From Patescibacteria group bacterium (lineage in GTDB: Bacteria > Patescibacteriota > Patescibacteriia > UBA9934 > GWF2-40-263): 56,365 bases of DNA. The position numbers were made by a program, and so were the translations under genes. Positions 4,378 through 54,358 of this stretch are shown here, one piece after another. Location of the stretch: contig JBBTRQ010000023.1 in assembly GCA_038065075.1 (NCBI GenBank), positions 1-56,365 on the forward strand. The letters are read 5' to 3'. Numbering within the stretch: position 1 is the stretch's first letter; each line of letters opens with the position of its first letter. The notes below the pieces were generated by a model that had not been told where the DNA came from, searched no databases, and saw only the letters and a list, made by a program, of their open reading frames with translations.

Positions 4378-4638
4378 ACTAATCCTATTCTAATGCAAAA
4401 AACCGCTCTCGTCAATTTTACAGCTATTTGTCGGAGACGGAGCCTACGACCTGGTTAGCGATTCTGCATCTCGTTGACATCATAACGAGCGCGACATACG
4501 CTGAGCTTCCTCGCTGGGACCCCCCACGAGACGTGGCAATCCAGCCACAAAGGCGCCCTTAAGTGACCTGATCGATCCGCTGCGGCTATCGAGCTTAGGC
4601 GGTCGAAAAAAGGTGTCACGCGGGGCAAGGAGACGTCG

Positions 4639-5859
4639 ATGGCAAGTGCAGACCCTGTTCGAGTGGATACGAAGCGCCTCCAGTGGCTCCTGGAGCGTGT
4701 GACTGCGGGAGCTGACTGGATCTCGGACGCGCAGGTGGAAGCCTTCGGCCGCAGGCCGGATGGTCCCATCATGCCCAGCTCGCACATCGTGCTGCGTAGC
4801 GTCCGGCTCCTCGAAAGCTACGGGATGGACGAGAACGGCAAGCCGTTCATCAGCCCCGTCACGAACGGACCGGAACTCCCGGTCGTGCAGGTCGCAGCTA
4901 ACCGCGCGGGGGAATGCTTCCTCCTGGCGCGCTGCGCGAGCGGCTACGTGATGGATACCTACGAGCTCGAGGCACCCAACCCCCAGACCATCCTGCACTT
5001 CGGCACGTACGGCCACGAGACCGCACGCGGACACGAGATCGCCACGTACGACCTGACCAGGGCGAGCATCCTGGGCTTCACGGCAGAAGGAGTGCCGGTC
5101 ATGTCCCAGTGGTCCAGTACGCTTGAAAAGGGGGAGGCCCCGCGTTCTTTCACGGGAGTCTGGCAGGGCGACCAGCTCATGGAACACGAGAGCACGAGCC
5201 CGTGGGAGTCCGTCGGCTTCGCGCGTGTCAGCTACGACGGGACGATCCTCTCGACGCTGCGCAACGTGCGTGACCACGCCATCCTGCGCAACGGCAAGGT
5301 GGTCGCTGGCTCGCCGCCCAACCTCGTCTCCATTGACGAGATGGCCGCGACCGCCAACGGCGAGATCTTCACCCTGTCGCGTCCCCACTCCAAAGTGCCG
5401 TACAGCCTGCTCCCGTTCTACGACGCGGTCTGGCAGCAGCCCCTCGTGGTGGGGCGTGGCGCCGAGCTCTTCGACCTCCTCTCCACGCGCCTGGGCGTGG
5501 TCGTGATCGGCAGCGACTACCGTCGTGTACACGCCTACGTTGTGGAGTCGAACATCATCGGTGGCCACTACACCGGCACCGTCATCCACCTGCACGACCT
5601 AGGACCCAAGGACGAGTACCGACGCGGGTACACGCCGCTCTCGGAAACCGACTGCGCCTATGTCCGCCGCTCGCGTGACGGGATGGAGCAGTGGGCGTTC
5701 CGACTGGGCGGCGAGGGCAATGCCGTCTTCTCCCACGGCCCCAGCTTCGACCGCGTGAGCGAACTCTTCCGCCACGGCGACGCCTTCCACTACTGGGCGG
5801 TCGCCGACCGCTACCTCCACCTGGTCAAAATTCCAGACGTTCCTGCGTCGAACCTCTGA
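4639..5859 (+). CDS. hypothetical protein (406 aa) in a GC-rich cassette
   Basis: Longest ORF of a GC-rich block; the 371-aa antisense ORF and several others are shadows. AAGGAG lies 6 nt before the ATG. No family recognised. Confidence 0.6.
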   Translation: MASADPVRVDTKRLQWLLERVTAGADWISDAQVEAFGRRPDGPIMPSSHIVLRSVRLLESYGMDENGKPFISPVTNGPELPVVQVAANRAGECFLLARCASGYVMDTYELEAPNPQTILHFGTYGHETARGHEIATYDLTRASILGFTAEGVPVMSQWSSTLEKGEAPRSFTGVWQGDQLMEHESTSPWESVGFARVSYDGTILSTLRNVRDHAILRNGKVVAGSPPNLVSIDEMAATANGEIFTLSRPHSKVPYSLLPFYDAVWQQPLVVGRGAELFDLLSTRLGVVVIGSDYRRVHAYVVESNIIGGHYTGTVIHLHDLGPKDEYRRGYTPLSETDCAYVRRSRDGMEQWAFRLGGEGNAVFSHGPSFDRVSELFRHGDAFHYWAVADRYLHLVKIPDVPASNL

Positions 5860-5894
5860 CCCTCTCTCCGGTGTCCCTCGCGACACCGGGCTCG

Positions 5895-5922
5895 CCCGCC
5901 ATAGCTTCACAGCGACGGCGGG
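5895..5922 (+). terminator. CCGCCATAGC..GCGACGGCGG hairpin element copy followed by a T-run (likely terminator of ORF 4639-5859)
   Basis: CCCGCCATAGCTTCACAGCGACGGCGGG followed by TTTTCATTTT. Confidence 0.55.
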
Positions 5923-6132
5923 TTTTCATTTTCCGCCCATTTGTCGGTGGCCCCGCCTACGACCTGGTTGAAACAACCTCATCCCAATCTATCGACGTAC
6001 CAGAAGATCCTCCCATCATTTGCGCGTGAGTCGCCGATACGTTCAGGAAAAAGAGAAGGGAGACGATGACGGTGATGGTTTTTCTCATATTGATGATGAT
6101 GTTGTGTGTGTTCTGACGGATCCGGAACGTGG

Positions 6133-7260
6133 TCATGTCGCCACGATTACCTGGGGCTTTTCAAGTTTGCCTTTGTATCGCGCGCCAATTTGCACCGTTC
6201 CAACCACAGATCGTGGCGCCACACCATATTGCTTTCCTGGTTTACCAGCCATGGCATGCTGATGACTGGGATCGAAGATGACGCCTCGTTTCGGAACAAG
6301 TAGTTCGATCTTCGCATCTGGCAGGAGTTTATTCAGGAGCGTTGTAACAGCCTCCAGCCACAATTCTCTTGTCTCATCCGTATAGTCTGGTGCGGATCCA
6401 TCTATGTGGGAAAAAAGATGATTCTCGTCCAGCGGTTCTGTATCGTTCAACTCTGCAAAACCACGACCAAGGCGTCTAAAAATATTCCCGATCATTGAGA
6501 TGTTGAGTGTTTTGTCTCTTGTCCAATCATCAAGTATGGGTTTCATGTCGATATCCACACCTTGCGCCGTAAGCCATTTCTCGGGAAAATCGAACGTCTT
6601 TTCCATATCACGAATGAGCTCTTTTTGTTCGGGTAGTAAATTGGCTATTCTCTCATATTGCTTAGCCATTTCAATATTTGTTTGTTTATGCGGTTGTGCT
6701 TCTACCACCTCATTGTCTGGCTCTGGCGCGTCTACACTGGCTTTGCTGCCTTCCCGGGTCATCATGTACCACTTGATCCATTGTCGCAGGTTGTCGACAT
6801 CCATCCTATCAATGACGGTTTTTCGGACGGTCGGATCCTCCTTGAACATACTAAGCAAGACTGTCCGATCATGTCCGGCAAGCTCTTCCATGATCTGGCG
6901 GCGTCCATCCTCATCCGCATTACGTCCATAGTGGCCTGCAATCCACCCACGCAATTTTTGATCGTCCATGTTTTCAACAATGGCATCCTGCAAGTCCGCT
7001 TCCTCTTCTATCAGCTCGATTAAATCTTGCCTCTCGTAGGCCGCAAGCGCCTCATCAATCTCATCTTGTTCTCGGTCAGGATTCGTCTGCTTTGGGTCGC
7101 TTCCCCTAGCTCGCTCCCCCGCGAATGTTTCTGGTCGCATAGATGTGTAGATAGAAGTTATCAGAGACCTCTGCAAAAGATCTGTGTAGTCATCTTGCTT
7201 CAACCATTCAATGATCTTAGCCAAGTCTGTGAGATAAAGCCAATGTCGTCTCCGCTTCAA
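6133..7260 (-). CDS. hypothetical protein with GrpE-like C-terminal domain (375 aa)
   Basis: The C-terminus AKIELLVPKRGVIFDPSHQHAM..VVGTVQIGARYKGKLEKPQVIV resembles the GrpE beta-domain (FDPxxHxA..GY..G..RPA.V.V). The long acidic N-terminus is unassigned. The ORF appears to begin with TTG, so the start is uncertain. Confidence 0.45.
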   Translation of the reverse strand: MKRRRHWLYLTDLAKIIEWLKQDDYTDLLQRSLITSIYTSMRPETFAGERARGSDPKQTNPDREQDEIDEALAAYERQDLIELIEEEADLQDAIVENMDDQKLRGWIAGHYGRNADEDGRRQIMEELAGHDRTVLLSMFKEDPTVRKTVIDRMDVDNLRQWIKWYMMTREGSKASVDAPEPDNEVVEAQPHKQTNIEMAKQYERIANLLPEQKELIRDMEKTFDFPEKWLTAQGVDIDMKPILDDWTRDKTLNISMIGNIFRRLGRGFAELNDTEPLDENHLFSHIDGSAPDYTDETRELWLEAVTTLLNKLLPDAKIELLVPKRGVIFDPSHQHAMAGKPGKQYGVAPRSVVGTVQIGARYKGKLEKPQVIVAT

Positions 7261-7317
7261 GGGTGTACGGCATGTTGGAGGCGAAACCTCCGCCCCGCTT
7301 AGAGATTCTGCATCTCG

Positions 7318-11450: not shown

Positions 11451-11488
11451 AAAAAACAATTCTGTCCGACCGGACACAATTGTTTTTT
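11451..11488. terminator. bidirectional intrinsic terminator
   Basis: AAAAAACAATTCTGTCCGACCGGACACAATTGTTTTTT: an A-tract, a near-perfect palindrome and a T-tract. Confidence 0.6.
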
Positions 11489-11538: not shown

Positions 11539-11572
11539 GATACAATAGTGTCCGATCGGACATTATTGTATC
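11539..11572. promoter_or_regulatory. 34-bp near-perfect palindrome (candidate operator or recombination site)
   Basis: GATACAATAGTGTCCGATCGGACATTATTGTATC has one mismatch and no flanking T-run. It shares the core TGTCCGAYCGGACA with 11451-11488. Confidence 0.35.
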
Positions 11573-11588
11573 TGGTCCGTGACACCCT

Positions 11589-11616
11589 CTCTGGACAGAA
11601 TCATCGTTTTGGTCTA
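11589..11616 (+). repeat. left direct repeat flanking GC-rich cassette
   Basis: CTCTGGACAGAATCATCGTTTTGGTCTA compared with 12179-12205. Confidence 0.8.
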
Positions 11617-11678
11617 GTCTTCCAAGTCGTTCATCGACAAACGGGCACCATTCCGGTGTCCTAGACAGGAGTGCTCCA

Positions 11679-12092
11679 ATGAAGGCTCGTCTCCCCGCCG
11701 CGCTGTCCGTTGCAATCTTCCTCTCCTTTGTTGTCTGCGGCGCTTCGGCGGTCGCGGACGACTACCCGACCTGCAGGAACGACAACTCGATCCTGCGGGA
11801 TCGCGATCAGATGATCCCGCTCGCCGAGCAGGGCTACGAATCGGCTCAGTCGAAGGTCGTGAGCTTCGACATCCAGATCCACGAGATCTGCCTGTGCACG
11901 CAGGTCGAGTGGGATCGACTCGATGCCGAGTACACCGAGACCACCATCGCCTACGCCGATGGCCGAGGCATGCCGGTTCGCCTGGCCAAGCCGGTCGTCA
12001 TCAGCCAGCCACGCCCCGAATGCGTCGCTCCCGCGAAGCGCTCGTGGCATGAGCAGGAGCCGGTGACCGAAGTGGACCCGATCGAGAACTAG
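11679..12092 (+). CDS. small secreted protein (137 aa), GC-rich cassette
   Basis: Signal peptide MKARLPAALSVAIFLSFVVCGASAVA. AGGAG lies 7 nt before the ATG. Confidence 0.6.
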   Translation: MKARLPAALSVAIFLSFVVCGASAVADDYPTCRNDNSILRDRDQMIPLAEQGYESAQSKVVSFDIQIHEICLCTQVEWDRLDAEYTETTIAYADGRGMPVRLAKPVVISQPRPECVAPAKRSWHEQEPVTEVDPIEN

Positions 12093-12122
12093 CCGCCTGT
12101 CTCTCGCCGTCCACGCCTCAGT

Positions 12123-12152
12123 CGCCCCGACTCCCTACGGGCGGCTTTTTTG
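12123..12152 (+). terminator. intrinsic terminator of cassette ORF
   Basis: CGCCC-11 nt-GGGCG followed by GCTTTTTTGTTT. Confidence 0.6.
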
Positions 12153-12178
12153 TTTCCAGGCACGACACAAAAGTCAGA

Positions 12179-12205
12179 CTCTGGACAGAATCAACGTTTG
12201 GTCTA
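12179..12205 (+). repeat. right direct repeat flanking GC-rich cassette
   Basis: CTCTGGACAGAATCAACGTTTGGTCTA differs from the left copy by one substitution and one T indel. Confidence 0.8.
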
Positions 12206-12213: not shown

Positions 12214-12504
12214 TCAAAAACTCTCCTGCATGTAATCGATCACAATTGAAATAATGCGTCTCACGGTAAGATTGCAATTTTTGAAGTGAAGTTTTTCGAT
12301 CACCTCGACGCCCTCTTGCCGAATCACGTCACTGATAAGTGCGTGAATAAACGATTGCGTCGCTCCATTAATTCCATCAAAATCTATAATAATTTCCTTT
12401 CCTTTGGACACGATCGGCAGGATGTCCTTCAAGCGGATGTCCCTGGCAACATCCTTATTTTCAGCAAAAGATCCTACCAAAGAAGCGAGGCTGATAGTCT
12501 TCAT
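12214..12504 (-). CDS. STAS-like (DUF4325-type) protein (96 aa)
   Basis: IIIDFDGINGATQSFIHALISDV is the typical DUF4325/STAS-like pattern. The gene overlaps the upstream ATPase gene by 4 nt. The unit is low in GC (~40%). Confidence 0.6.
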   Translation of the reverse strand: MKTISLASLVGSFAENKDVARDIRLKDILPIVSKGKEIIIDFDGINGATQSFIHALISDVIRQEGVEVIEKLHFKNCNLTVRRIISIVIDYMQESF

Positions 12505-13568
12505 ACAAATCTTGGCTCGACTTTACGTCGAGCTTTTTTTCTTGCACGAACGGCGGCGCTGTACACTTCTCTTAATGACTCGAGTAACTGGTCAAACTCA
12601 TTTGTTGCATCCAGGGAGATATCAATGCCGACAACGGTTCCTTGCCATCGTGGTAATCCTTCCTTGACTGTGTGGCGATCATCAAATGGATCCGCGTGAA
12701 GTTGGAACGCCTGATCTTTTTTGTATTTTAACAGCTTGTACAGCGCATCCCCGCTATAAAGCACAAAGTGGGTTCGGTTCACCGCCGCAATGGACTTGGT
12801 AAAAAATAAGCCCGCACCAGCATTCCGTTCGGTTCCCCCTTCGCGGGCTGTGGTTCCGGTGATACCGGGCATAAGCGCCAGTCGGATTGCTTCTAGATCC
12901 GAATGAACGAGGTATGATTGTGAAATGGTTTTTTTGATCCCTACACCTATATCCGCGATGCCGATTCGAATCATGTTGCTTCGTGCGTGATACTGCGCCG
13001 ATAAGACTGCCCCTTGTTTTGACTGCGCATGCTCAAGTACGTTTCTCACCATTTCGCTAAAAACATATTGAATCGGCTCAGCATGCTTGGGACTCAGGTG
13101 AAGCAACGGGATAATTTCCGTAAGTACACCGACTAGCTCGCCCGTATTTCGAATCTGTCTGAGAGGAATAAAGCGACCCGCTGGTTCGTGTAATGTAATA
13201 TTCATGCCTGACTCGATACCCAAAAACTTAAACAGACCCATGCGTTCAAGATAGTGCTTTGACGTGGCCTCAAGCTTCTCACAAAAAACAGACTCATCCC
13301 GCACACCCAAACCCAAAATAGCGATCATGGACAAAACGAGCGGATGGAGGGATATCCATTTTTTGTTCGCCGTTATCTCTAGCGTTCCCGGATTCAAAGG
13401 ATCAAAACCTCTAAAAAAAGCTTCGATGTTCCCGATAAACGCACTATTAGGAAGATGTATCTTCATGTCAATAAAATACCAGGATTTTCGTTTTTCGTCA
13501 AAATATGCAAATCCCGGTAAATTTCGCATAAAGCGATCCACTTCCCTGTTGTAAGGAATAAAAGACAT
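12501..13568 (-). CDS. GHKL-superfamily (histidine-kinase-like) ATPase
   Basis: N box EMVRNVLEHA, G1 IADIGVGI, G2 GTERNAGAGLF. The start is set at MSFIPYN (ATG 13568); the track extension to 13646 runs into GC-rich foreign DNA. Confidence 0.7.
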   Translation of the reverse strand: MSFIPYNREVDRFMRNLPGFAYFDEKRKSWYFIDMKIHLPNSAFIGNIEAFFRGFDPLNPGTLEITANKKWISLHPLVLSMIAILGLGVRDESVFCEKLEATSKHYLERMGLFKFLGIESGMNITLHEPAGRFIPLRQIRNTGELVGVLTEIIPLLHLSPKHAEPIQYVFSEMVRNVLEHAQSKQGAVLSAQYHARSNMIRIGIADIGVGIKKTISQSYLVHSDLEAIRLALMPGITGTTAREGGTERNAGAGLFFTKSIAAVNRTHFVLYSGDALYKLLKYKKDQAFQLHADPFDDRHTVKEGLPRWQGTVVGIDISLDATNEFDQLLESLREVYSAAVRARKKARRKVEPRFV

Positions 13569-13653
13569 GGATCTCCTCACGCTGGAGGAGGCGAACCAGA
13601 TCACCGACATCAACGACAACACCATCTTCCGCGCGCTGGTCTCCAAGCGGTAG
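13567..13653 (+). CDS. 28-aa ORF resembling the N-terminus of excisionase/MerR-type HTH proteins (possible remnant)
   Basis: MDLLTLEEANQITDINDNTIFRALVSKR* in a GC-rich patch. It is followed by a terminator similar to that of cassette 11679-12092. Confidence 0.3.
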   Translation: MDLLTLEEANQITDINDNTIFRALVSKR

Positions 13654-13726
13654 CCCAGCCTTCCACGCGCCTCCCTCTCCAGGGCGGCTTTTTTGTTTTA
13701 TCGATTCCCTGGTAAACTAGAGCCAC

Positions 13727-17257: not shown

Positions 17258-17304
17258 AGGAATGAAAAGGCCCCGCAGGTGCAGGGCGCGTGTTGGAGCG
17301 ACGG

Positions 17305-39139: not shown

Positions 39140-39146
39140 GCGCGTT

Positions 39147-41377: not shown

Positions 41378-41705
41378 TATCCATACGTCATAAAACAAAA
41401 CGACTCGCTCGCGCGAATCGCCTGCCAGGCCTTCAGCCGGGTTTGCTCATTCCACAGAATGATCTGCAGGCAAGAAATTTCATGCGTGGACAGATCGAGC
41501 GCAATGCCTGATGTATCCACGTTATGAAATCCCATGCTTGTCGTGCCTGCAGATCACTCTGAACAATTGCCGGGATGACCAGAGAAAAGAACAGGACTGT
41601 AGGGTAACGCCACAGTCTACCTACTGAATGAAAAGTTGTCAAGTATCTGAACACGATCATGATACCTTATCCACAAATGCCTGGCAATAGTGAACCGATC
41701 CAACC

Positions 41706-41731
41706 AAAAATGGGCAGAACGCCCATTTTTT
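41706..41731. terminator. bidirectional intrinsic terminator downstream of clpP
   Basis: AAAAATGGGCAGAACGCCCATTTTTT. Confidence 0.7.
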
Positions 41732-41780
41732 GAATATTCGAGAAATCTCATCCACGACCTATCCCCGCTCTGTCCCCTGC

Positions 41781-42401: not shown

Positions 42402-42413
42402 ACGCAGGTCATT

Positions 42414-43391: not shown

Positions 43392-43476
43392 AGTTCGACA
43401 GGCTCACTATCTATAGGGAGCCGCACACTCTATCCTACCCCAAAGCGATGGTCAACCATGTTATAATCGTTTCACT

Positions 43477-45798: not shown

Positions 45799-45821
45799 TA
45801 AAAAACGACCCGTGGTGGTCG

Positions 45822-46034
45822 TCATGAGGAGAGGAGGGCGATAGCAACGAGCATGAGGACGTCCAGAAAGATCGCCAGAGGAAGGAGGGCGAGAGCCTCC
45901 TTGACCTCCTTGCGCCACCACTGGGCGGCCATGCCCTCCCGCTCAATGGGGTCGTTGAAGCTCCGAAAGAGCGGGTGGCGTTCCTGGGAGAGGAGCGCCG
46001 CGAATAGCCCGAGAAGCGCGACAAAGGTCAACAT
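45822..46034 (-). CDS. small membrane protein (70 aa), GC-rich unit
   Basis: Two hydrophobic segments. A GGGGTGAG-type SD precedes the ATG. Confidence 0.4.
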   Translation of the reverse strand: MLTFVALLGLFAALLSQERHPLFRSFNDPIEREGMAAQWWRKEVKEALALLPLAIFLDVLMLVAIALLSS

Positions 46035-46139
46035 GACTCACCCCTTTCGCTTGGCCACTTGTCTATAATAGAGCTAACCACGACGCACAACTTTGTACAA
46101 CAAAACACACCCCAGAGATGGGATGTGTTTTGTTTATGT

Positions 46140-46197
46140 CCTCAACTGAGTCTTCGACCCTGAGTCTATAGAAGGGTCGACTTCTCGGTTGAAGAGG
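46140..46197. repeat. attC-like imperfect palindrome E1
   Basis: CCTCAACTGAGTCTTCGACCCTGAGTCTATAGAAGGGTCGACTTCTCGGTTGAAGAGG. Confidence 0.8.
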
Positions 46198-46198
46198 C

Positions 46199-46450
46199 AT
46201 GGGTGGCATGCTATTCTTTTCCTATATGAAGAAACACGTCGTGAATGATTATCCTGTCATTGTGCACACGGACGATTCTGTCGGCTACTGGGTTGAGTGT
46301 CCTGTCTTTGAAGGTTGTTACAGCCAGGGTAAGACGATCGATGAAGCGCTCAAGAACATCCAGGAAGCGATCGAACTCTGCGCAGAAGAGTTACCAAAAA
46401 AGGCGGTGAGACAACGACGCGAGATAGGCGTCCATTTTGTTCGCGTCTAA
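46199..46450 (+). CDS. hicB: HicB-family antitoxin
   Basis: GYWVECPVFEGCYSQGKTIDEALKNIQEAIELCAEEL. The start is possibly MKKH at 46226. Confidence 0.8.
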   Translation: MGGMLFFSYMKKHVVNDYPVIVHTDDSVGYWVECPVFEGCYSQGKTIDEALKNIQEAIELCAEELPKKAVRQRREIGVHFVRV

Positions 46451-46454
46451 GTCT

Positions 46455-46682
46455 ATGACAGAGCTTGCAGGAATCTCCGGAAAGCGGATGATCCGTGTCC
46501 TCGAGAAACTCGGCTATCAGATTTTACGTCAGAAAGGTAGTCACGTCCGTCTGAAGCACCATCGAGATCCGACCAGACGACCTGTCACCGTTCCCCTTCA
46601 CAAGGAGCTCGGCGTTGGACTCGTCCATAAAATGATCCGAGACGCCGGTATCAGCCTAGAAAGTTTCATCGAACTGCTCTGA
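46455..46682 (+). CDS. hicA: HicA-family toxin
   Basis: RMIRVLEKLGYQILRQKGSHVRLKH. Confidence 0.8.
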   Translation: MTELAGISGKRMIRVLEKLGYQILRQKGSHVRLKHHRDPTRRPVTVPLHKELGVGLVHKMIRDAGISLESFIELL

Positions 46683-46700
46683 GGAGCAGTTCTTTATTTT

Positions 46701-46742
46701 CCTCAACTGAGTCTTCGAGGTAACTCGATTCCTCGGTTGAGG
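46701..46742. repeat. attC-like imperfect palindrome E2
   Basis: CCTCAACTGAGTCTTCGAGGTAACTCGATTCCTCGGTTGAGG. Confidence 0.8.
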
Positions 46743-47469
46743 ACCCCGGCAGTCGACACGTGATTGGCGCTTTCGCACCACGTCGGCCGGGGCAGGTCGT
46801 CTAGAGGCCCCGGTCGACTTCACAAGTCGTGCCGGGATCCTCGTTCCCCTGACTTTTTGGCGCGCGCAGGGGGGGCGCAGATCAATGATCCCGCAGGAAG
46901 GACATCGTCCCTCCTTTCCTTGCTCAGTGCCCGGGTGATAACCTAGTGGGCAAAGGGATGAGGTCGCTCATCCTCCGAGTCGATGCGTCGACCAGCGTGT
47001 CGTTAACCTCCACGAGCCAGGAGTATTCAGATTAACCCGACTTCATCGGGAGGCCTAATACTGAAGGCCTGTTTTCCCATGCTTTGGCGCGACCCTTTAG
47101 GACGTTGCCGTCCACCGACGCCTCAAGGTTTCCCTCGAGCGGTTGCTCCAACAGGTTTGCTACGTACTCAGGTGCTGTCCCCTTTCCTCACGCTCTGTTG
47201 TGCAAACCGGCATAGTGCGCCGGGTTGTCTGTATTATCCGCGTCTGGGCGACAACTTGGTCTTACGACCCCCAGACGTTTCCTAGTGTTGCTCGGGCATG
47301 AACCCTCCTCCATACCTGGTGGTTCAGAACGTCACGACGACCAGGATTTCGTCGAGACACCAGACATCTCGCTCATGGTCGGCGAGCCACGTGTGGCCGC
47401 GGACCGAGAGGAGACGTCCGAAACGAATCACCCCGTTCGAGAAGACAACCATGCTCAGCATGATCTCCT

Positions 47470-47524
47470 CCTCAACTGAGTCTTCGACCCTGAGTCTATC
47501 GAAGGGTCGACTTCTCGGTTGAGG
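47470..47524. repeat. attC-like imperfect palindrome E3 (near-identical to E1)
   Basis: CCTCAACTGAGTCTTCGACCCTGAGTCTATCGAAGGGTCGACTTCTCGGTTGAGG. Confidence 0.8.
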
Positions 47525-47565
47525 AGCCCGGCGCGAGGACGGACTCCTCGGGTCGGGCGCGTGGG

Positions 47566-48207
47566 TCAGTTGGTGCCGGCGTCCCATGCGTCGGCGTCAA
47601 ACCCGTTGTTGGTGAGGTCGTCGAGGTAGTCCGCGTCGTCGGTGACATTCGGGGCGAGGACGACCGCGACGGCCGCCTCGATCTCCTCGCCATCGACCAT
47701 CGCGAGGAGTTCCTCGCGGAGGCGGGCTTCGACGATCGCGGGGTTGTCCTCCGGGTCGGGCTCCGGGTACGGCAGGTCGACCATGTCGCGGGAGTAGCGG
47801 GTGAAGGCGTGGCCGATGGCCGAGGGGTCGAGCCGCGGGACGGGGATCACGATGAAGGCTGTGCCCTCACCGTCCGAGACCCGGACGAGCTCGTAGTGCT
47901 CCCCACCGTCGTCGGTGAGGTAGGCAACGCTCACCGCCAGCCGGAGATCCTCGTTGAAGAGGAGGACGGCGACGATCTTGTCGACGATCTCGAGGCACCC
48001 GGCCAGGTGGGCACGGACGCCCAGACCGATCAAGGTGGCGGCGAGCTGGGCGGAGTTGGAACGGTTCACGATGATTTCTTTCTGCGACCTCTGGCCGCGT
48101 GGGGGGTGCGTGTCGGGAACTGTTTCATCCCAAGAGTCTTGAGGCAGAACCTCCAGACTTCTGAGATGAAAAAGCTGATTACCAGGTACCTCGTCGGAGA
48201 TACCCAA
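47566..48207 (-). CDS. hypothetical acidic protein (213 aa), GC-rich
   Basis: Longest ORF of the GC-rich block. The ORF appears to begin with TTG, so the start is uncertain. No family recognised. Confidence 0.5.
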   Translation of the reverse strand: MGISDEVPGNQLFHLRSLEVLPQDSWDETVPDTHPPRGQRSQKEIIVNRSNSAQLAATLIGLGVRAHLAGCLEIVDKIVAVLLFNEDLRLAVSVAYLTDDGGEHYELVRVSDGEGTAFIVIPVPRLDPSAIGHAFTRYSRDMVDLPYPEPDPEDNPAIVEARLREELLAMVDGEEIEAAVAVVLAPNVTDDADYLDDLTNNGFDADAWDAGTN

Positions 48208-48416
48208 TAATCAGCTAAGGAAGGCCTTGCGGCTTCCTCGGATGAACATCAGGTCTCTCTCCCCAATGAGTTCGATTGTAATGGTGCAATACTATCACTT
48301 TTTGACCGTTTTGTCAAGAGGAGTGTGTGCTTTTTGAGCTGAATTTAGTCAAAATTTGTGACCATAAGCAAAAGCCGGGTGGAGGCAGTTCTGTGTCTAT
48401 GTTATTCTTTGTTTGT

Positions 48417-48701
48417 ATGAAGTCTCAACAACTCTCTTATACGGCCGTGATCCAGCAAGATGAAGACGGAAACCACCTTGTTTCTTTTCCCTCTCTTCCC
48501 GGGTGCGTCACTTTTGGACGGACTTATGAGGAAGCTTTGAAAATGGGACAAGAGGTGCTCGAATTATGGATCGAAGAACTTGTTGAATCTGGGGAACCAC
48601 TCCCAGAAGAAGGTCGATCAAGTCTGACGATCCTGAACACACCGCGCCCGACTCACAAACGAACTCGTGCCTATGCATCCGCTCGCACCCAAAGAGCTTG
48701 A
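48417..48701 (+). CDS. hicB: HicB-family antitoxin
   Basis: YTAVIQQDEDGNHLVSFPSLPGCVTFGRTYEEALKMGQEVLELWIEEL. The start is set at MKSQQ. Confidence 0.75.
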   Translation: MKSQQLSYTAVIQQDEDGNHLVSFPSLPGCVTFGRTYEEALKMGQEVLELWIEELVESGEPLPEEGRSSLTILNTPRPTHKRTRAYASARTQRA

Positions 48702-48885: not shown

Positions 48886-48910
48886 GACGTCCTTTGTTTT
48901 GGAACAAGAT

Positions 48911-48953
48911 AAAACCGCTCTGTGAGGAGCGGCTATGCGTGCGTCGATCGCCA
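48911..48953 (-). terminator. shared 3' module/terminator (copy 1)
   Basis: Minus-strand sense TGGCGATCGACGCACGCATAGCCGCTCCTCACAGAGCGGTTTT. It matches 50234-50275 apart from a 1-nt indel. Confidence 0.65.
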
Positions 48954-48978
48954 CACCCGGCGGGGCGTGTTGGGGGTG

Positions 48979-49446
48979 CTACTTGTCGTGCTCGCGATGG
49001 GTGAAGACGATCGTCTTCCCGGTGAGATCCCCGCAGATACGGGTGAACTCACCCACCCCAGGGAGCAACCCGTCGCCGTCAACGGCTCGGGACAGGACCT
49101 GATCCTTGTCCTGGCCGCGAACCCGCCCGCTCGCCAAGGCGACCAGGTTGTTGTTGGCGTCCACGAGCATGAAGCTCGTGTCCGCCCAGACGAACTGGAG
49201 CTCGGGAAGCGTGCTCCTCGTCGCTCCCTCGGAAGAGCGGTAGGCGAACCGGTACTCGATCCGGTACTTGCCCGAGAGGCCGCTCGCCCTCAACCCGGTC
49301 TGCACGCACACGGCGAGCGGCCGGCCTGGCATCCACACCGTGTCGCCGTGGTAGATCTCCACGGTAGCGGTGGCGGTGAGCTGCTGCGCGAGGGCGAAGG
49401 TGGGGGTGGAGAGGAGAAGGGCGAGGAGGACGGGGATGAGGCGCAT
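48979..49446 (-). CDS. secreted protein (155 aa), GC-rich
   Basis: Signal peptide MRLIPVLLALLLSTPTFALA. AGGAG lies 5 nt before the ATG. Confidence 0.6.
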   Translation of the reverse strand: MRLIPVLLALLLSTPTFALAQQLTATATVEIYHGDTVWMPGRPLAVCVQTGLRASGLSGKYRIEYRFAYRSSEGATRSTLPELQFVWADTSFMLVDANNNLVALASGRVRGQDKDQVLSRAVDGDGLLPGVGEFTRICGDLTGKTIVFTHREHDK

Positions 49447-49487
49447 GACGTCTCCTGGGGGTTGGGTACAACTTCACCGTGAAGTTT

Positions 49488-49535
49488 CCCTCAACTGACA
49501 CGTCGAGATTTCGCTCGACGGTTCGGTTGAAGGGG
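49488..49535. repeat. attC-like imperfect palindrome E4
   Basis: CCCTCAACTGACACGTCGAGATTTCGCTCGACGGTTCGGTTGAAGGGG. Confidence 0.75.
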
Positions 49536-49546: not shown

Positions 49547-49816
49547 GTGCTATGCTCAAATTGTATGGATCAGGAGCAAGCCATCAACGATATCCTCGAG
49601 ATCGTCTCGGCGATAAAAGACGAAATGGTTACGCATGATGAACTACATCAGGCATTGTTTGAGACGAGGTCAGAAATCATGAGCCATGTTGACAGCTTCA
49701 TCCATCTGCACAATAAGCTCGACACGGAGCTCACGGCTTTGCGGGGAAAGTACGACCGACTCGAGGGTTTCGTAAAACAGCTTGCCGCCCACGCCCATAT
49801 CACTCTGGAATATTAG
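49547..49816 (+). CDS. small coiled-coil protein (89 aa)
   Basis: Clean ORF with backbone-like composition between E4 and E5, followed by the terminator GCAACCTCGCAAGAGGTTGTTTTGTTT. Confidence 0.5.
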   Translation: MLCSNCMDQEQAINDILEIVSAIKDEMVTHDELHQALFETRSEIMSHVDSFIHLHNKLDTELTALRGKYDRLEGFVKQLAAHAHITLEY

Positions 49817-49848
49817 CAGTAGCAACCTCGCAAGAGGTTGTTTTGTTT

Positions 49849-49892
49849 CCCTCAACCGACGCGCCAAGCGACACTTAGCGAGTCAGTTGAGG
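49849..49892. repeat. attC-like imperfect palindrome E5
   Basis: CCCTCAACCGACGCGCCAAGCGACACTTAGCGAGTCAGTTGAGG. Confidence 0.75.
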
Positions 49893-50233
49893 ACCCCGGC
49901 CGACGTGGCGCTTGAGCGCCACGAGCGTCCCCGTGAGTACGAAATCCTCGAGGACGACCTGCACGACTTTGGCCGTGAGAGCCGCCTTGAGCGCTCTGTT
50001 TCCCGGCTTACTCTGGCAATGCATTGGGTCTCCTTCCCAACCAACGCTGGCTGAAAAAAAATTGGATGTCGTCAAACACCTGCTCGACGTACGTGGAGGG
50101 CAGATCGCAAATAACGATCTGCCCTATGCGCGCGTGGTCAAGCAAGAGACGACAAGCTACCATTTTTGCACGTTCTGTCAAGACGGGTGCTTGAAATATC
50201 CCATTATTTCAGCCGATTTTTTGGCCAATAGAA

Positions 50234-50275
50234 AAAACCGCTCGTGAGGAGCGGCTATGCGTGCGTCGATCGCCA
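50234..50275 (-). terminator. shared 3' module/terminator (copy 2)
   Basis: AAAACCGCTCGTGAGGAGCGGCTATGCGTGCGTCGATCGCCA on the plus strand; on the minus strand it reads as a hairpin plus T-run. Confidence 0.65.
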
Positions 50276-50295
50276 GACGCGGTAGGCGTCGGCGA

Positions 50296-50859
50296 TCACT
50301 CCTTGCTCATCACGAGCCGGTCGAGCGCGCGGTGGAACGTGAGCTTGTTGGGCTGGTTGTTGACGATGACGGGACCGTCGAGGGCCATGAGGTCGGGGAT
50401 GTTGGCGTTGCCGGCGAGCTGTTCGATCTCCCGGAAGCGCTGGCCCGTGAGCCCCTGCTCCCCCATCCGTTGCCGGCGGCGGGCGCGGGCGAGCCGGACG
50501 TTGAAGTCGGCTTCGAGCTTCACGAGCTGGAAACCGTGCAGGTCGTTGTAGACCTCGACCTCGGCGAGGTTGCGCACCCCGCTGACGACGACCAGTCGCC
50601 GGGGCTCGCGCGTCCAGAGCTCGACGACGGCCTCCTGTACCTGCCGCGCGATCCAGCCGTAGCCTTCGTTCGCGGCCCGCTCTTCGAAGAGCGCAGAGAG
50701 TTGGTCGGTCGTCGGACTCCAGTTGCCGCTCTGCGCGGCGAGCTTGCGGATGAAGTCCGAGTGACCGAAGCGCTGTGCCCCGTGAACCTTCTGCAGGTAC
50801 TCAGCCGCTTCGTCCTTGCCGGCACACGGCCAGCCCACGAACCCGATGACACGTCTCAT
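50296..50859 (-). CDS. P-loop kinase-like protein (dNMP/dephospho-CoA-kinase-like), GC-rich
   Basis: VIGFVGWPCAGKDEAAEYL Walker A. GGAGGTG lies 5 nt before the ATG. Confidence 0.55.
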   Translation of the reverse strand: MRRVIGFVGWPCAGKDEAAEYLQKVHGAQRFGHSDFIRKLAAQSGNWSPTTDQLSALFEERAANEGYGWIARQVQEAVVELWTREPRRLVVVSGVRNLAEVEVYNDLHGFQLVKLEADFNVRLARARRRQRMGEQGLTGQRFREIEQLAGNANIPDLMALDGPVIVNNQPNKLTFHRALDRLVMSKE

Positions 50860-50931
50860 GAATTCACCTCCTCTCCAGAATCTCTGGAGCCACCAACCTA
50901 GCAGGGAAAAGACCGCTCGTCAATCCATTTC

Positions 50932-50960
50932 TTGACGAAAGAAAGGAAATCTCGTATTCT
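50932..50960 (+). promoter_or_regulatory. candidate rpsP promoter
   Basis: TTGACG-17 nt-TATTCT, about 75 nt upstream of ATG 51037. Confidence 0.4.
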
Positions 50961-51036
50961 GCCGCCATCCCCCCTACGCCAAGGCTTCGGGGGGCAAGCC
51001 GTCAAACACGCTCATGTTTAGACGAACAATACCCTT

Positions 51037-51494: not shown

Positions 51495-52607
51495 TTGGTT
51501 TATATGATCCAGTCACGCCACGAACAATTTGAAACACTCTTTCCCTCCGAGCCTGCGTTTCGATGGAAGCAAATCGAAGGTGCGTTTTTTTCGTCGGCAA
51601 AAAGTTGGGACGACGTGACGACCATCTCAAAGTCGATGCGCGAGAAGCTGGCAGTCATCCCATGGATGAGCGTTACCTCACAGACAGTTCAAGTCAGCGG
51701 TAACGGGGACACGCACAAGGCGCTTCTCAGAGTCGAGGGCGACAAGGAAATCGAAACCGTCCTCATGAAAAACCGTGCGGGTGCCTGGACGATCTGCGTC
51801 TCATCTCAAGTGGGCTGTGCCATGCGCTGTGGTTTTTGCGCGACCGGCAAGATGGGTCTCACACGCAGTCTCATCGCCGACGAGATCGTGGACCAGTATC
51901 GATTTTGGCAACGATATCTGGTAGACCCGGGCTTTCCTGCCAGCCATAGCTTTAGCGACGGCGGGAGCCCGGGCGCACCCAGGCTGAAGCCTGGGACTAC
52001 CGAGAGAATCAGCAACATCGTCTTCATGGGCATGGGCGAGCCGCTCGCCAACTACGAGGAAGTAAAGCTGACGCTCAACACCCTTTTGAAATTTACCGAC
52101 CTTGGCGAGACCCGCCTCATGGTCTCCACCGTGGGCGTGCTCCCACGACTCGAACAGCTCCTCACGGACCCAGAGTGGCCACACGTGCGTCTGGCCGTTT
52201 CGCTTCACTCCGCTATCGAAGAGACACGCAAAAAAATCGTACCAACCAGTTACGACGAATTTCTTCCTAAACTATCCGACTGGGCGAAGCGCTACCTTCA
52301 AAAATTCGGCAATCGCCGTCACCACCTCACCTTTGAATACGTCATGCTCAAGGGCGTGAACGACTCACCCGCGCATGCCAAGGCGCTGGCCGTCTTCGTG
52401 AACCGCATCGGACGGATCAAGGTCAATCTCATTCCCTACAACCTTACGGACTGCGAATATCAACGGTCAACGGACACGACGATCACCGCCTTTCTTGATA
52501 CCCTCGCGCGCAATCACGTCACGGCCACCATCCGCCACACGATGGGTGACGACATCAATGCCGCCTGCGGACAGCTCATCGTCAATCAAACGGCCACGAC
52601 CGAGTAA
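51495..52607 (+). CDS. rlmN: 23S rRNA/tRNA adenine-C2 methyltransferase RlmN (radical SAM), carrying an in-frame hairpin element
   Basis: CAMRCGFCATG, NIVFMGMGEPLANY and a C-terminal ..CGQL motif. Confidence 0.9.
   Translation: MVYMIQSRHEQFETLFPSEPAFRWKQIEGAFFSSAKSWDDVTTISKSMREKLAVIPWMSVTSQTVQVSGNGDTHKALLRVEGDKEIETVLMKNRAGAWTICVSSQVGCAMRCGFCATGKMGLTRSLIADEIVDQYRFWQRYLVDPGFPASHSFSDGGSPGAPRLKPGTTERISNIVFMGMGEPLANYEEVKLTLNTLLKFTDLGETRLMVSTVGVLPRLEQLLTDPEWPHVRLAVSLHSAIEETRKKIVPTSYDEFLPKLSDWAKRYLQKFGNRRHHLTFEYVMLKGVNDSPAHAKALAVFVNRIGRIKVNLIPYNLTDCEYQRSTDTTITAFLDTLARNHVTATIRHTMGDDINAACGQLIVNQTATTE
51926..51973 (+). repeat. hairpin element copy inside rlmN
   Basis: CCCGGGCTTTCCTGCCAGCCATAGCTTTAGCGACGGCGGGAGCCCGGG is translated as DPGFPASHSFSDGGSPG. 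It is followed by the short hairpin CCCAGGCTGAAGCCTGGG (51978-51995). Confidence 0.85.
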
Positions 52608-52666
52608 CCCATTGAGCTTGACAGCCGCGGCGGGGCTGTGCTAGTCTCTAAGCACAACTGAAGAAA

Positions 52667-52785
52667 ACGTATTCAGAGTGTAGCGAGGGAACTAGCCCGA
52701 TGACCTGCCCGCAACCTACTCGCAAGAGCAAGGTGCGACCTCTAGCCCCGCAAGGGGAAAGATGCAACGGCAAAGCTGAATACGT
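52667..52785 (+). promoter_or_regulatory. SAM-I (S-box)-like riboswitch aptamer
   Basis: P1 is ACGTATTCAG/CTGAATACGT. The core AGAGTGTAGCGAGGGAACTAGCCCGATGACCTGCCCGCAACC..GGTGCGACCTCTAGCC..CCCCGCAAGGGGAAAGATG matches the conserved S-box string GAGGGA-CUGGCCCGAUGA-CC-GGCAACC..GGUGC..GAAAGAUG. P3 covaries (CGCAACC/GGTGCG). Confidence 0.65.
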
Positions 52786-52913
52786 CGCCCACAAGGCGAT
52801 CGTTTTGTTTAGACGATCCCCCTGCAGGCGACGTATTCGCCAAACCGTCTGATTAAGCGCGTCTTTCCATCATGGGAAGGCGCGTTTGTTCTTTCACAAC
52901 CAGGGAGGACGGC

Positions 52914-53153
52914 ATGACCGACCACAACCCAGAGCCCGACGACTTCGTCTTCAACGACACGGCGCCGGCCGGACTCGCGCGATCGCCATACGGCTGCGCA
53001 GACGAGGACGCACTCATCCGCGAACTGGACTTCCGCCGCGCCCGTGAACGGTTAGAGCAGGGTCTGGATCCGCTCACCGGCAAGCCCTACAACCGCTCGG
53101 TGGATCCCTTCGCCACCACCTGGGATCTGGAGCCGATCGAGGAGTCATTGTGA
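52914..53153 (+). CDS. hypothetical acidic protein (79 aa), GC-rich
   Basis: GGGAGG lies 5 nt before ATG 52914. It is the first ORF after the riboswitch and its hairpins. Confidence 0.5.
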   Translation: MTDHNPEPDDFVFNDTAPAGLARSPYGCADEDALIRELDFRRARERLEQGLDPLTGKPYNRSVDPFATTWDLEPIEESL

Positions 53154-53374
53154 TCCTCTTCCAACCCTGTTCGTACCATTATCCGGAACTACTCGGATAC
53201 GAGCGACTCGAGTGGGCCGCGAGCATGGGTCGAGCGCATGATCGCAAGACGCGGTGTCTTCCTCGTGCCCGAGAAACCTGGCCGCCTTGAAAAACGACGC
53301 GGTCGTGAACACCTCACGACCCTTTTCCCCGCCCTGCGACATTCCGTCGTAGGGCGGGGACGAAGGAGCCCATC

Positions 53375-53806
53375 ATGTCCGTCATCGCTCTGGAACGTCC
53401 GGCTATCGAGGCTGTGCTCATCCGTGTTGACCCTCAAGAGTTCGAGCGTCAGCGTTTGCGCTTCACATCCGGTCTGCGCGTCCCTGGCCTCGCTCGCTAC
53501 GAACTCCGCGGCACTCCCGTCCGCTTCGCAGGAGTGAGTCAGGGTGGAGGAATCGACTCGCACTCGAGCAAGCGCGTCGGTGTGTTCGTGGAACGGTCAG
53601 GAGCATCTGGACTCTACGAGCCGCCGCACGAAGCAGTGCGCTCGTGCGATCTTCTCGTCGTCGTGCGTGCCCCAACAGCACGAGAACGAGCGGAAAGCCC
53701 ACTCAAACTCAGCGCCCTGAGGATCGTCGAGGCCGTTCGACTGCGTCCGGGCTCGCTCGAAGGCTTGGAAAGCCTTGAGATCACCGAACCGTTCGTCGTC
53801 TGCTGA
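53375..53806 (+). CDS. hypothetical protein (143 aa), GC-rich
   Basis: AAGGAG lies 6 nt before the ATG. No family recognised. Confidence 0.5.
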   Translation: MSVIALERPAIEAVLIRVDPQEFERQRLRFTSGLRVPGLARYELRGTPVRFAGVSQGGGIDSHSSKRVGVFVERSGASGLYEPPHEAVRSCDLLVVVRAPTARERAESPLKLSALRIVEAVRLRPGSLEGLESLEITEPFVVC

Positions 53807-53890
53807 ACCAACGAGCAGCGGTACGATCCGCTGCTTTTTCTTGACGAGCGACGCTGGATTCTCTAGGCTCCCCTTGAAAGGAGAGAGCCG

Positions 53891-54313
53891 ATGAGTCTCA
53901 CCGAACGTCCCAAGTGGCGCATGACCCGCTGCGAAGCGCAGGTGATCCTGGATCTGGAGGCGCTGAATCGCGCCCTGCGCGCGCCCGAGCGCTGGGTACC
54001 AGAGCCGCTCATCACGCTCTTGATGAGTGCGCGCAAGGGCGGCCGACCGCATGTCACTCTGCGTACGCTCAAGAAGCAGGGCTATGTCGAGTACGACCCG
54101 ACCCAGCTGGCCTGGCGCCGAACCGGCAAGCCGGTTCCTCGACCCGAAGTGCTGTCGGGCGACGCGCCCAACCCGATCCCGCAAGACGCCATGAGCCGGC
54201 TCGCGACTGCATGGAGACGCGGACGTCGCTCCTTCACGCTGGAGGATCTCGCCGCAACGCCGCCGGATCTCAAGGGCGTTCCCAAGTCCAGTCCCAAACG
54301 CGGCCGCGCATGA
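53891..54313 (+). CDS. hypothetical basic protein (140 aa), possibly wHTH, GC-rich
   Basis: AAGGAG lies 7 nt before the ATG. The segment ..VTLRTLKKQGYVEYD.. is winged-helix-like. Confidence 0.45.
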   Translation: MSLTERPKWRMTRCEAQVILDLEALNRALRAPERWVPEPLITLLMSARKGGRPHVTLRTLKKQGYVEYDPTQLAWRRTGKPVPRPEVLSGDAPNPIPQDAMSRLATAWRRGRRSFTLEDLAATPPDLKGVPKSSPKRGRA

Positions 54314-54358
54314 GCCGCAAACGCAAAGCGGCCCTTCGATCAACTCAGGGTCGCCTCG

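Follow-up and report, generated by a model that had tools for sequence, protein, structure and literature searches.

GC-rich, Shine-Dalgarno-led accessory genes in variable slots between core genes of a Candidatus Uhrbacteria genome, and an array of attC-like hairpins in one of these slots

The DNA analysed here is a stretch of 56,365 nt (the window in what follows; overall GC 54.8%) from the forward strand of the Patescibacteria contig JBBTRQ010000023.1 (GCA_038065075.1), and this report deals with small GC-rich genes, most of them preceded by a Shine-Dalgarno (SD) sequence, that lie in variable slots between housekeeping genes, as well as with an array of hairpins in one of these slots. The window is part of the genome of a Candidatus Uhrbacteria, a groundwater bacterium of the candidate phyla radiation (CPR). 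Clustering at 90% identity groups its ClpP with proteins that, where they are named, come from Candidatus Uhrbacteria or Patescibacteria, and the nearest rlmN loci, out of 185,579 species genomes searched, belong to Uhrbacteria metagenome-assembled genomes (66–76% identity). The backbone genes comprise gyrA, rpsA, ftsH, type IV pilus genes, tsaE, tsaD, typA, clpP, a short smc, rpsP and rlmN, and a 16S rRNA gene starts at 55837. Two gene classes are observed in this DNA, which differ in composition, initiation signal and location. Loci or contigs of relatives are cited by L-numbers (e.g., L001 or L086), among which L081 and L140 are BH28 and L083 is bin.251.

An earlier note, made from the sequence alone, had listed eleven GC-rich segments, at 4481–5938, 11617–12178, 13567–13700, 17258–18300, 20600–21165, 37380–38160, 45799–46139, 46743–48210, 48900–49487, 49893–50900 and 52850–54357. 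All eleven are GC-enriched (in order, 0.651, 0.625, 0.590, 0.606, 0.643, 0.621, 0.560, 0.619, 0.653, 0.619 and 0.631), the sliding GC profile peaks at the same places, and the pooled segments have 62.6% GC against 53.3% for the remaining window. The three hand counts of that note (40/60, 31/60 and 23/60) are exact, and the stacked sense and antisense open reading frames (ORFs) that it described are present. ORFs within the segments have 59–67% GC and a third-position GC (GC3) of 0.64–0.91, and 32 backbone genes have 54.8 +/− 2.4% GC and a GC3 of 0.65 +/− 0.05; note that tsaD, a backbone gene, reaches 60% GC. The description of these segments as eleven mini-cassettes holds for most of them, which contain GC-rich genes, and fails for 46745–47467, where there is no ORF, and for 13567–13700, which is really the 5′ end of a GC-poor ATPase gene together with a duplicated terminator. 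The segment 45799–46139 has merely 56% GC overall, yet it contains a real GC-rich gene of 70 aa.

The first GC-rich gene, hyp406 (4639–5859, plus strand; GC 0.655, GC3 0.85), encodes a 406-aa orphan with AAGGAG 7 nt before its ATG; among 5.8 billion proteins it has no homologue but itself, it matches nothing in Pfam, PHROG or PADLOC, and it is absent from the relatives, where its site is empty. The gene sec137 (11679–12092, plus strand; GC 0.638, GC3 0.84) encodes a protein with a signal-peptide-like N terminus and has the SD AGGAG and a terminator at 12139–12155. A nucleotidyltransferase (NTase)-like protein of 291 aa is encoded at 17305–18180 on the minus strand (GC 0.604, GC3 0.74; SD GGGAG), and its terminator (17270–17287) is separated by 12 nt from the true start of tsaD (17257); the NTase adjoins tsaD also in L086, L099, L091, L092, L096 and L110 (28–59% identity). 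The small secreted-type sec148 (20628–21074, plus strand; GC 0.642, GC3 0.91) has the SD GGAG and a strong terminator, and its homologues with 26–31% identity in the same neighbourhood of L086, L088 and L093 are each GC-richer than their own backbone. On the minus strand, a Zn-ribbon gene (37808–38086, SD AAGGAG) overlaps a Nudix hydrolase gene (37396–37830) that is followed by a terminator; an orthologous pair, GC-rich and with GGAGG SDs, stands beside TrmB-hsp20 in L081/L140 and L083, and the pair is missing in L002 and L009.

The remaining GC-rich genes lie on the side of smc, rpsP and rlmN. The small membrane-type orf70 (45822–46034, minus strand; 70 aa, GC 0.62, GC3 0.80) has the SD-like sequence AAGGGGTGA and a terminator, and was also called as a gene on an independent assembly. 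The gene hyp213 (47566–48207, minus strand; GC 0.648, GC3 0.83) has an uncertain start without a clear SD, and no tblastx homologue was found for it in the loci of relatives that were fetched. The secreted-type sec155 (48979–49446, minus strand; GC 0.667, GC3 0.90; SD AGGAG) shares its terminator repeat (48922–48960) with the AAA_18 P-loop kinase-like gene, hereafter AAA18 (50296–50859, minus strand; GC 0.668, GC3 0.89; SD AGGAGGTGA; terminator repeat 50244–50282); a sec155 homologue (34% identity, GC3 0.86) occupies the same slot in L009, and AAA18 adjoins rpsP in L001, L002, L006, L008 and L010 (51–70% identity), where it is always GC-richer than the backbone. The last block consists of hyp79, hyp143 and hyp140 (52914–53153, 53375–53806 and 53891–54313, plus strand), each with a GGAG-type SD, and ends in a terminator hairpin at 54358–54388; homologues of hyp143 (L012, L007) and hyp140 (L013) lie in the same rlmN–hyp223 interval. 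Directly before this block, a SAM riboswitch aptamer was detected at 52666–52768 on the plus strand (47.3 bits against a gathering score of 44.4), and its position just 3′ of the radical-SAM gene rlmN recurs in L012 (11080–11185) and L013 (13370–13474), i.e., in at least three species.

A GGAG-type SD lies 5–10 nt before the start in 11 of 13 GC-rich genes and in 5 of 47 others (Fisher p = 8e-7), a tally which uses author-curated starts and in which the 11 includes the imperfect AAGGGGTGA site. All nine SDs quoted in the earlier note are found at their starts (4639, 11679, 18180(−), 38086(−), 49446(−), 50859(−), 52914, 53375 and 53891), and the two further ones are GGAG before 20628 and AAGGGGTGA before 46034(−). 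The accompanying statement that the backbone genes inspected have no SD needs exceptions for the backbone as a whole. Between 30.4 and 46.7 kb, the public gene calls of the independent assembly contain 0 backbone-type genes with an SD, the single HicB motif match among these calls being the 3′ arm of a hairpin (E1, described below), but SDs do precede gyrA (1–2028, minus strand; intein-bearing, and the clearest case of a strong SD in the backbone, AAGGAGG), pilB, the solo hicB at 48327 and possibly Fic and, from an alternative start, hyp329. A crude gene caller applied to 16 loci showed the same trend, the share of ORFs preceded by an SD being 52% in the GC-rich class, 25% in the backbone and 6% in the GC-poor class (~20% expected by chance); since this caller is noisy, the SD claim rests on the curated and public gene calls. 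Indeed, in the public calls of BH28 and bin.251 around the Zn-ribbon/Nudix slot, genes with 56–66% GC mostly have GGAGG 6–8 nt before the start, whereas their neighbours with 44–52% GC have none. As for the claim that each unit has its own terminator, a GC-rich hairpin with a T run follows 10 of 12 GC-rich genes.

In four relatives, the 16S rRNA terminates in GGATCACCTCCTTT, with the anti-SD intact, and ribosomes of this lineage are, on the evidence of this rRNA end, able to read SDs. Because of this intact anti-SD and of the AAGGAGG of gyrA, an SD is no mark of foreign origin here, and its interpretation as a foreign ribosome-binding signal was ruled out. On the side of the core genes, a −10-like hexamer (TATAAT, TAGAAT, TACAAT or TACACT) ends 8–10 nt before the ATG of smc, clpP, hsp20 and LycCyc (upstream of 43477, 42401, 39147 and 35868, respectively). 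These hexamers are kept at the same core genes in L081, L083, L084 and L140; as an example, hsp20 of BH28 and bin.251 has TACAAT 9–11 nt before the ATG. Such a short distance to the start codon suggests that several core genes have leaderless or near-leaderless mRNAs.

The location of the GC-rich genes becomes clear when gene order is compared among relatives. With variable intervals given in parentheses, the rlmN side reads LycCyc–hsp20–VanW–clpP–DHH–smc–(variable)–rpsP–rlmN–(variable)–hyp223–hyp126–16S, and the pilB side reads hyp105–MBL–hyp228–(variable)–rpsA–ftsH–hyp329–(variable)–pilB–tsaE–tsaD–(NTase)–APH–MFS–(variable)–typA. All segments of the earlier note fall within the intervals in parentheses, between syntenic core blocks, and empty sites were found at four junctions. 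Thus, the hyp228–rpsA gap measures 105–132 nt in L086 and L091 against 3.5 kb in the window (Fic, hyp406 and a GC-poor gene), the hyp329–pilB gap 25–200 nt in L086, L091, L093, L096 and L101 against 2.4 kb (sec137 and the GC-poor ATPase), and the rlmN–hyp223 gap 0.5–0.7 kb in L004 and L009 against 1.76 kb, while LycCyc directly adjoins hsp20 in L002 and L009. Given these empty sites and the placement of the segments in variable intervals, the picture of units wedged between housekeeping genes is right, and so is that of self-contained units (SD plus terminator) inserted between core blocks. Slot size differs among close relatives: at one junction it lies between 0.1 and 5 kb, and the smc–rpsP slot reaches ~31 kb in BH28. 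The same hot spots hold GC-poor accessory genes without an SD (6133–7260, 12501–13646 and 36567–37325), showing that the slots take in two compositional kinds of cargo. This GC-poor cargo (42–48% GC) comprises an unknown 375-aa protein (6133–7260, minus strand), a HATPase-like gene (12501–13646, minus strand), a DUF2283 and HD-domain pair (36567–37325, plus strand) and the solo HicB (48327–48701, plus strand).

Several module borders coincide with short direct repeats, and the segment ends 4481, 5938, 11617 and 12178 match such repeats. The hyp406 unit is bracketed by a 30-nt repeat on the plus strand (A1, 4427–4456; A2, 5940–5969), of which a third copy (A3, 7273–7303) lies before rpsA. A promoter-bearing piece of 21 nt that ends in TTGACAT (P1, 4460–4480, plus strand) lies upstream of hyp406 and abuts the segment start at 4481; it is identical to P2 (7304–7324), and A3 plus P2 (7273–7324) constitute the upstream region of rpsA. 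At the other end, A2 follows the hyp406 terminator, a CCGCCATAGC...GACGGCGG hairpin with a T run (5896–5925). In the same way, the sec137 unit is flanked by repeats of 29–32 nt, X1 (11585–11616, plus strand; promoter-like, TGGACA-17-TAGTCT) and X2 (12177–12205), with the segment 11617–12178 exactly between them, and two copies of the terminator that hyp329 has in the relatives with an empty site, 12139–12155 and 13682–13698, flank the GC-poor ATPase gene. Such border repeats would be the footprint expected from insertion by recombination at a short shared sequence. The interval from hyp329 to the sec137 unit also contains two related extended palindromes of operator-like appearance (11455–11485 and 11540–11572), with TGTCCGRYCGGACA at their centres.

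Seven of the GC-rich families (NTase, AAA18, Zn-ribbon/Nudix, sec148, hyp143, hyp140 and sec155) are conserved in place in other Uhrbacteria, and homologues at the same slots are GC-richer than the backbone of their own locus in 17 of 17 comparisons, with backbones ranging from 41 to 58% GC. The excess over the backbone amounts to +0.06 to +0.15 in GC and +0.06 to +0.38 in GC3, among species whose backbone GC3 spans 0.32–0.71 and whose cassette proteins share 26–70% identity. Since the backbone GC3 has drifted apart and the excess has been kept, amelioration should have erased any donor signal by now. The GC excess is therefore a property of the gene class, held across species, and many units are long-resident or circulating within the lineage rather than recent imports.

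The slot between smc and rpsP, the largest of the slots, contains, in addition, an array of hairpins that the earlier note had overlooked. Five attC-like hairpins on the plus strand, E1 (46138–46196; CCTCAAC...TCGA...TCGA...GTTGAAG), E2 (46699–46744), E3 (47468–47526; 97% identical to E1), E4 (49487–49534) and E5 (49848–49894), lie in a 3.8-kb part of the window, and relatives have 1–11 copies each in the same interval and orientation. The pattern was matched 8 times at 5 loci, counting both strands, where 0 matches were expected, and the hairpins are known in 14 genomes including that of the window, at this locus only. When 1.03 Mb of DNA from Uhrbacteria and other CPR bacteria was searched with a covariance model built from them, all matches lay upstream of rpsP and scored higher on the plus strand, and the model had 0 matches in ~0.6 Mb of other Uhrbacteria DNA. 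In an alignment of 35 copies, the hairpin consists of a nearly invariant 7-bp outer stem, a variable 4-bp stem, a spacer of 2–3 nt, an inner TCGA stem and a loop of 3–30 nt. The outer boxes CCTCAAC...GTTGAGG are nearly invariant in 35–37 copies (AAC and GTT are invariant), the inner TCGA/TCGA box is paired in 26–35 of 35 copies, and positions 11–12 are mostly unpaired (14–16 of 37). Overall, 88.7% of the alignment cells are paired, compared with 28–44% when the partner is slid, and 10 pairs have changed on both sides (covariation). Copies measure 41–59 nt (most of them 41–48 nt), stand head to tail and have a conserved tail of 8–12 nt after the 3′ box, and the internal loop is symmetric (2×2 or 3×3) without a conserved single-base bulge. 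A role as intrinsic terminators was ruled out, as no T run follows them.

Units of the array in the window contain 0–3 genes on both strands, several with their own terminators: E1 and E2 bracket a hicB–hicA pair (46208–46682), and E4 and E5 bracket hyp89 (49547–49816), a module also found in L001, L004, L012 and L013. Between the hairpins of L006, L007, L008 and L012 there are single small ORFs on the minus strand, which have a GC3 of 0.77–0.96 and GGAG SDs. Module order differs among species, the hyp89 module and an RNA-like block (see below) swapping places, and the divergent promoter region of AAA18 and rpsP (50860–51036) closes the array. The slots are thus recombination hot spots, whose content varies, some of which are empty, and which show shuffled module order and repeats at the borders. 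Near the arrays, a single gene of recombinase type was seen, in one of 13 relatives: it encodes an IS200-like Y1 transposase and lies on the smc side of the array in L013 (2909–3532). HicAB-type toxin–antitoxin loci or remnants occur three times in the 56 kb (46208–46682, 48327–48701 and, on the minus strand, 31601–32086), and hyp137 is the shadow of a minus-strand hicB/hicA remnant.

Between E2 and E3, the ORF-less stretch 46745–47467 recurs with 70–82% nucleotide identity in eight Uhrbacteria, always inside the smc–rpsP array (L001 5298–5967, L012 3922–4621, L006 5598–6296, L008 6173–6788, L002 7956–8684, L009 7817–8522 and L013 6372–7072). Folding favours its minus strand (−80.3 against −58.8 kcal/mol for the plus strand; 45 against 34 compensatory pairs; invariant G-U pairs on the minus strand only). 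It matches no Rfam family, and a search of the hairpins and this block against Rfam returned nothing at E ≤ 1 over 5.4 kb and chance-level matches at E ≤ 10. This conservation suggests that the block is probably a structured RNA, a candidate for a new one, of roughly 430–720 nt.

Altogether, we propose that Uhrbacteria have a distinct class of small accessory genes, represented in this genome by the eleven GC-rich stretches, that sit in fixed slots and act as portable cassettes of a lineage-wide pool, moved by recombination, a reading to which we give a probability of about 0.55. The GC-rich genes would then be portable expression units of a pool circulating within Uhrbacteria, and a recombinase encoded elsewhere in the genome might move them by site-specific or homologous recombination at their boundary elements. 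Core SD-less starts may depend on local context, i.e., a promoter at the start codon or operon coupling; a transplanted gene could not use such a promoter-coupled start and would need its own SD and terminator. Exchange inside a GC-rich pool may uphold the GC excess, or gene conversion with a bias towards GC may do so at the hot spots, and the excess would then not be the unameliorated trace of a donor.

A number of observations weigh against this proposal. Most units enclosed by hairpins in the window (hicBA, hyp89 and the RNA-like block) are not themselves rich in GC, and the GC-rich genes beyond the smc–rpsP slot have no such hairpin. The hairpins themselves are short (41–59 nt), nearly symmetric and without obvious extrahelical bases, and are likened to attC by their architecture and not through an attC covariance model. 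Pfam searches of all genes in the 56-kb window revealed no recombinase, in agreement with the earlier note, and there was none in the public calls of L140; Pfam likewise gave no recombinase for the ten largest array ORFs of L006–L008 and L010–L013, apart from the IS200-like gene of L013, and no integrase turned up when the BH28 locus was extended towards smc. AAA18, Zn-ribbon/Nudix and partly the NTase look vertically inherited, so that mobility is putative for these units, and the causes named for the GC excess are proposals. Finally, the backbone starts and their leaderless status are predictions, and the hand-scored sample comprises ~60 genes of one genome.

Other explanations may account for part of these results. 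If nothing moved at all, the GC-rich genes would be vertically inherited, fast-evolving, lineage-specific genes, whose GC content and SDs reflect leadered, SD-dependent expression, and the hairpins would be elements of RNA stability or processing; regulation, e.g., by the SAM riboswitch, and a local mutational or conversion bias may also have a part in such a scheme. This is the main alternative, credible but rather unlikely, which draws on the conservation of families in place across many species with a persistent GC offset, the failure to find a recombinase, the conserved riboswitch before one block, and the symmetry of hairpins that, in relatives, lie between ORFs of one transcription direction. 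It fits poorly with empty sites and with slots of very different content and size in close relatives (the 0.1–5 kb at one junction and the ~31 kb of smc–rpsP in BH28), with the shuffled module order, and with direct repeats lying precisely on module borders, in which promoter and terminator sequences are present twice. In addition, NTase identity is out of step with that of its neighbour (PilB 84% and NTase 32% in L091; 75% and 52% in L099), and elements that stabilise RNA occur throughout genomes, whereas the hairpins keep to one locus.

The earlier note had favoured repeated capture from a high-GC, SD-using donor, possibly a host organism. According to this explanation, the units came in one by one, through separate recent captures from a foreign organism, and kept the donor's composition and ribosome-binding site, as the sharp compositional edges of self-contained units in insertion hot spots with empty sites in relatives, together with the species-specific hyp406, sec137 and hyp213, might indicate. 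A large protein database search with three cassette proteins (hyp406, NTase and Nudix) found no donor outside the lineage and no high-GC donor clade, the proteins tested being either orphans or confined to Uhrbacteria and Patescibacteria: no donor homologue was found for hyp406, every source-named one of the 13 members of the NTase family is from Uhrbacteria or Patescibacteria, and the nearest Nudix relatives are other Uhrbacteria (53–99% identity), beyond which the next named matches, from Streptomyces, share ~46% identity, a point in favour of a donor. A foreign-donor genomic island should have its closest homologues outside the recipient lineage, which is not the case for the three proteins searched; it should also show patchy presence and empty sites, which are found at four junctions, yet seven families are conserved in place in other species. 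The GC excess persists over backbones of 41–58% GC despite protein identities of 26–70%, the anti-SD is kept in relatives and gyrA uses an SD, and GC-poor modules occupy the same hot spots. Capture from such a donor is thus not borne out and appears improbable, and the host as donor is unsupported, as no outside donor was found and the lineage's own ribosome can read SDs. A phage or defence origin was also tried and rejected: no PHROG match was obtained and the PADLOC matches of Nudix and NTase were weak and to candidate families, and scans of IMG/VR, which reach no further than close relatives, brought up neither a relative of NTase, hyp406 or AAA18 nor an exact occurrence of the strict hairpin consensus pattern. 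Lastly, abrupt shifts of composition in a metagenome-assembled contig could come from chimeric joins or mis-binned metagenome fragments, which is extremely unlikely. The ENA contig L085, from an independent assembly of the same organism and 99.9% identical to and colinear with the window over 29303–47830 (18.5 kb), reproduces the junctions of 3 of the 11 segments, so that chimerism, about which the earlier note had cautioned, is ruled out and in effect refuted for that stretch; the cassette proteins are found again on 3–7 contigs (up to 389 kb) in assemblies of NCBI, ENA and Logan, and the same architecture occurs in many relatives assembled separately.

Coming back to cassettes moved within the lineage, the smc–rpsP array invites comparison with integrons. 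In integrons, the attC outer boxes follow the consensus RYYYAAC...GTTRRRY, extrahelical bases mark the recombinogenic strand, sites are typically 57–141 nt long, and toxin–antitoxin modules occur inside chromosomal integrons. The array resembles such systems in being a series of imperfect palindromes in one orientation, 0.4–2 kb apart, with small single ORFs between them in relatives, in having sites that vary in sequence and are conserved in structure, with near-identical copies within a genome, and in enclosing a toxin–antitoxin module. An attC site has an R box, an L box, an unpaired central spacer and a variable terminal loop, and two or more clustered attC sites without a neighbouring IntI make up a CALIN (cluster of attC sites lacking integron-integrase; PMC9024848). 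The array, with five hairpins in 3.8 kb and up to 11 in relatives, has no adjacent integrase, as in a CALIN; the CCTCAAC...GTTGAGG pairs agree with RYYYAAC/GTTRRRY at 6 of 7 positions, and inner boxes, unpaired spacer and variable loop are all present, whereas extrahelical bases are not evident and most copies are shorter than attC sites typically are. The adjacent IntI gene of a complete integron, beside which an attI site and a Pc promoter would lie, is missing from the window, the array ORFs tested and the public calls of L140. The cassette layout (one ORF, one orientation, a site after each) holds in L006, L007, L008 and L012, but the units of the window have 0–3 genes on both strands. In a further difference from integrons, the Uhrbacteria array is fixed between two housekeeping genes across a CPR family, and its cassettes bring their own SDs and terminators. 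We therefore describe the smc–rpsP array as integron-like or CALIN-like and do not call it an integron, because no integrase is within reach, the sites are short and symmetric, and the likeness is one of architecture and not of the attC model. Our literature search found no report of integrons in CPR/Patescibacteria and nothing relevant on SD use in CPR. We put forward tentatively, as a more specific and rather doubtful proposal, that a cassette-capture platform exists between smc and rpsP, in which minimal attC-like hairpins would be served by a recombinase other than a neighbouring IntI, the structured RNA (430–720 nt) would travel along, and a GC-rich, SD-led pool would seed the other slots.

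The slots also recall genomic islets, with variable content at a few fixed intervals of a syntenic core, empty sites and direct repeats at the borders. Accessory genes are usually AT-richer than the core; here they are GC-richer, with an excess conserved across species and a different initiation signal, and the slots are without integrase, tRNA target or transposase. Compared with REP/BIME and REPIN elements, the hairpins are likewise short conserved imperfect palindromes in intergenic DNA, with an IS200/Y1 gene at the array edge in one relative (L013). In contrast, they are confined to a single locus and not dispersed through the genome (in the 1.03 Mb searched), their stems vary with compensatory changes while two boxes stay fixed, and the Y1 gene occurs in one of 13 relatives. 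As regards initiation, GeneMarkS-2 has described genomes with mixed leaderless or SD-less and SD-led initiation and a class of 'atypical' genes (PMC6028130). The window is similar in having an SD-less core (with the −10 box 8–10 nt upstream in smc, clpP, hsp20 and LycCyc) beside an atypical gene class, but here the two modes map onto compositional classes and onto core versus slot location, a link of initiation mode with composition and location that we did not find described in the literature searched. The observation of the earlier note is confirmed and its interpretation partly supported, and what the window contains is probably an integron-like cassette system with hot-spot islets in a CPR lineage, in which accessory status, high GC and SD use are joined in an unusual and conserved link.

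CPR genomes are tiny, and how such bacteria gain and exchange genes is poorly understood. If the pool of recombining cassettes is real, SD-less core versus SD-led cassettes would be a functional signature of core versus mobile genes in reduced genomes. If the integron-like nature of the array is confirmed, integron-type gene capture would extend to a family of the CPR, a group for which we found no integron report; the array would become a locus to mine for host-interaction genes, as many cassettes encode small secreted or membrane proteins. The link of gene class, composition and initiation signal, if confirmed, would make GC-biased conversion, cassette pools and SD-independent initiation directly testable. 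In practice, an SD or a jump in GC is no evidence of foreign origin or mis-assembly in such genomes, and a gene finder that has learned from core genes will place starts wrongly in one of the two classes.

Some further features of the window deserve mention. A DHH phosphoesterase gene occupies 42414–43391 on the minus strand, and the 381-aa plus-strand ORF at 42321–43466 is its shadow; ARAGORN found a tRNA-Glu and nothing else. The CCGCCATAGC...GACGGCGG hairpin, which doubles as a terminator after hyp406 and hyp140, is also the core of a GC-rich palindrome that lies in frame in three essential genes, smc (45273–45333), rlmN (51920–51980) and, in reverse orientation, tsaD (16843–16866). There it adds ~17–20 residues, with the peptide PGFPA(R/S)HSFSDGGS in both SMC and RlmN and another one in TsaD; the alignment shows that it is missing from the RlmN of L001, and the SMC of relatives is ~20 residues shorter. 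In this respect it resembles the Rickettsia palindromic elements. Three tandem hairpins of the CCGCCATAGC...GACGGCGG type (55727–55935, ~200 nt) lie upstream of and overlap the 16S start at 55837, and in the relative L011 the 16S rRNA gene itself contains a group I intron (19307–19580).

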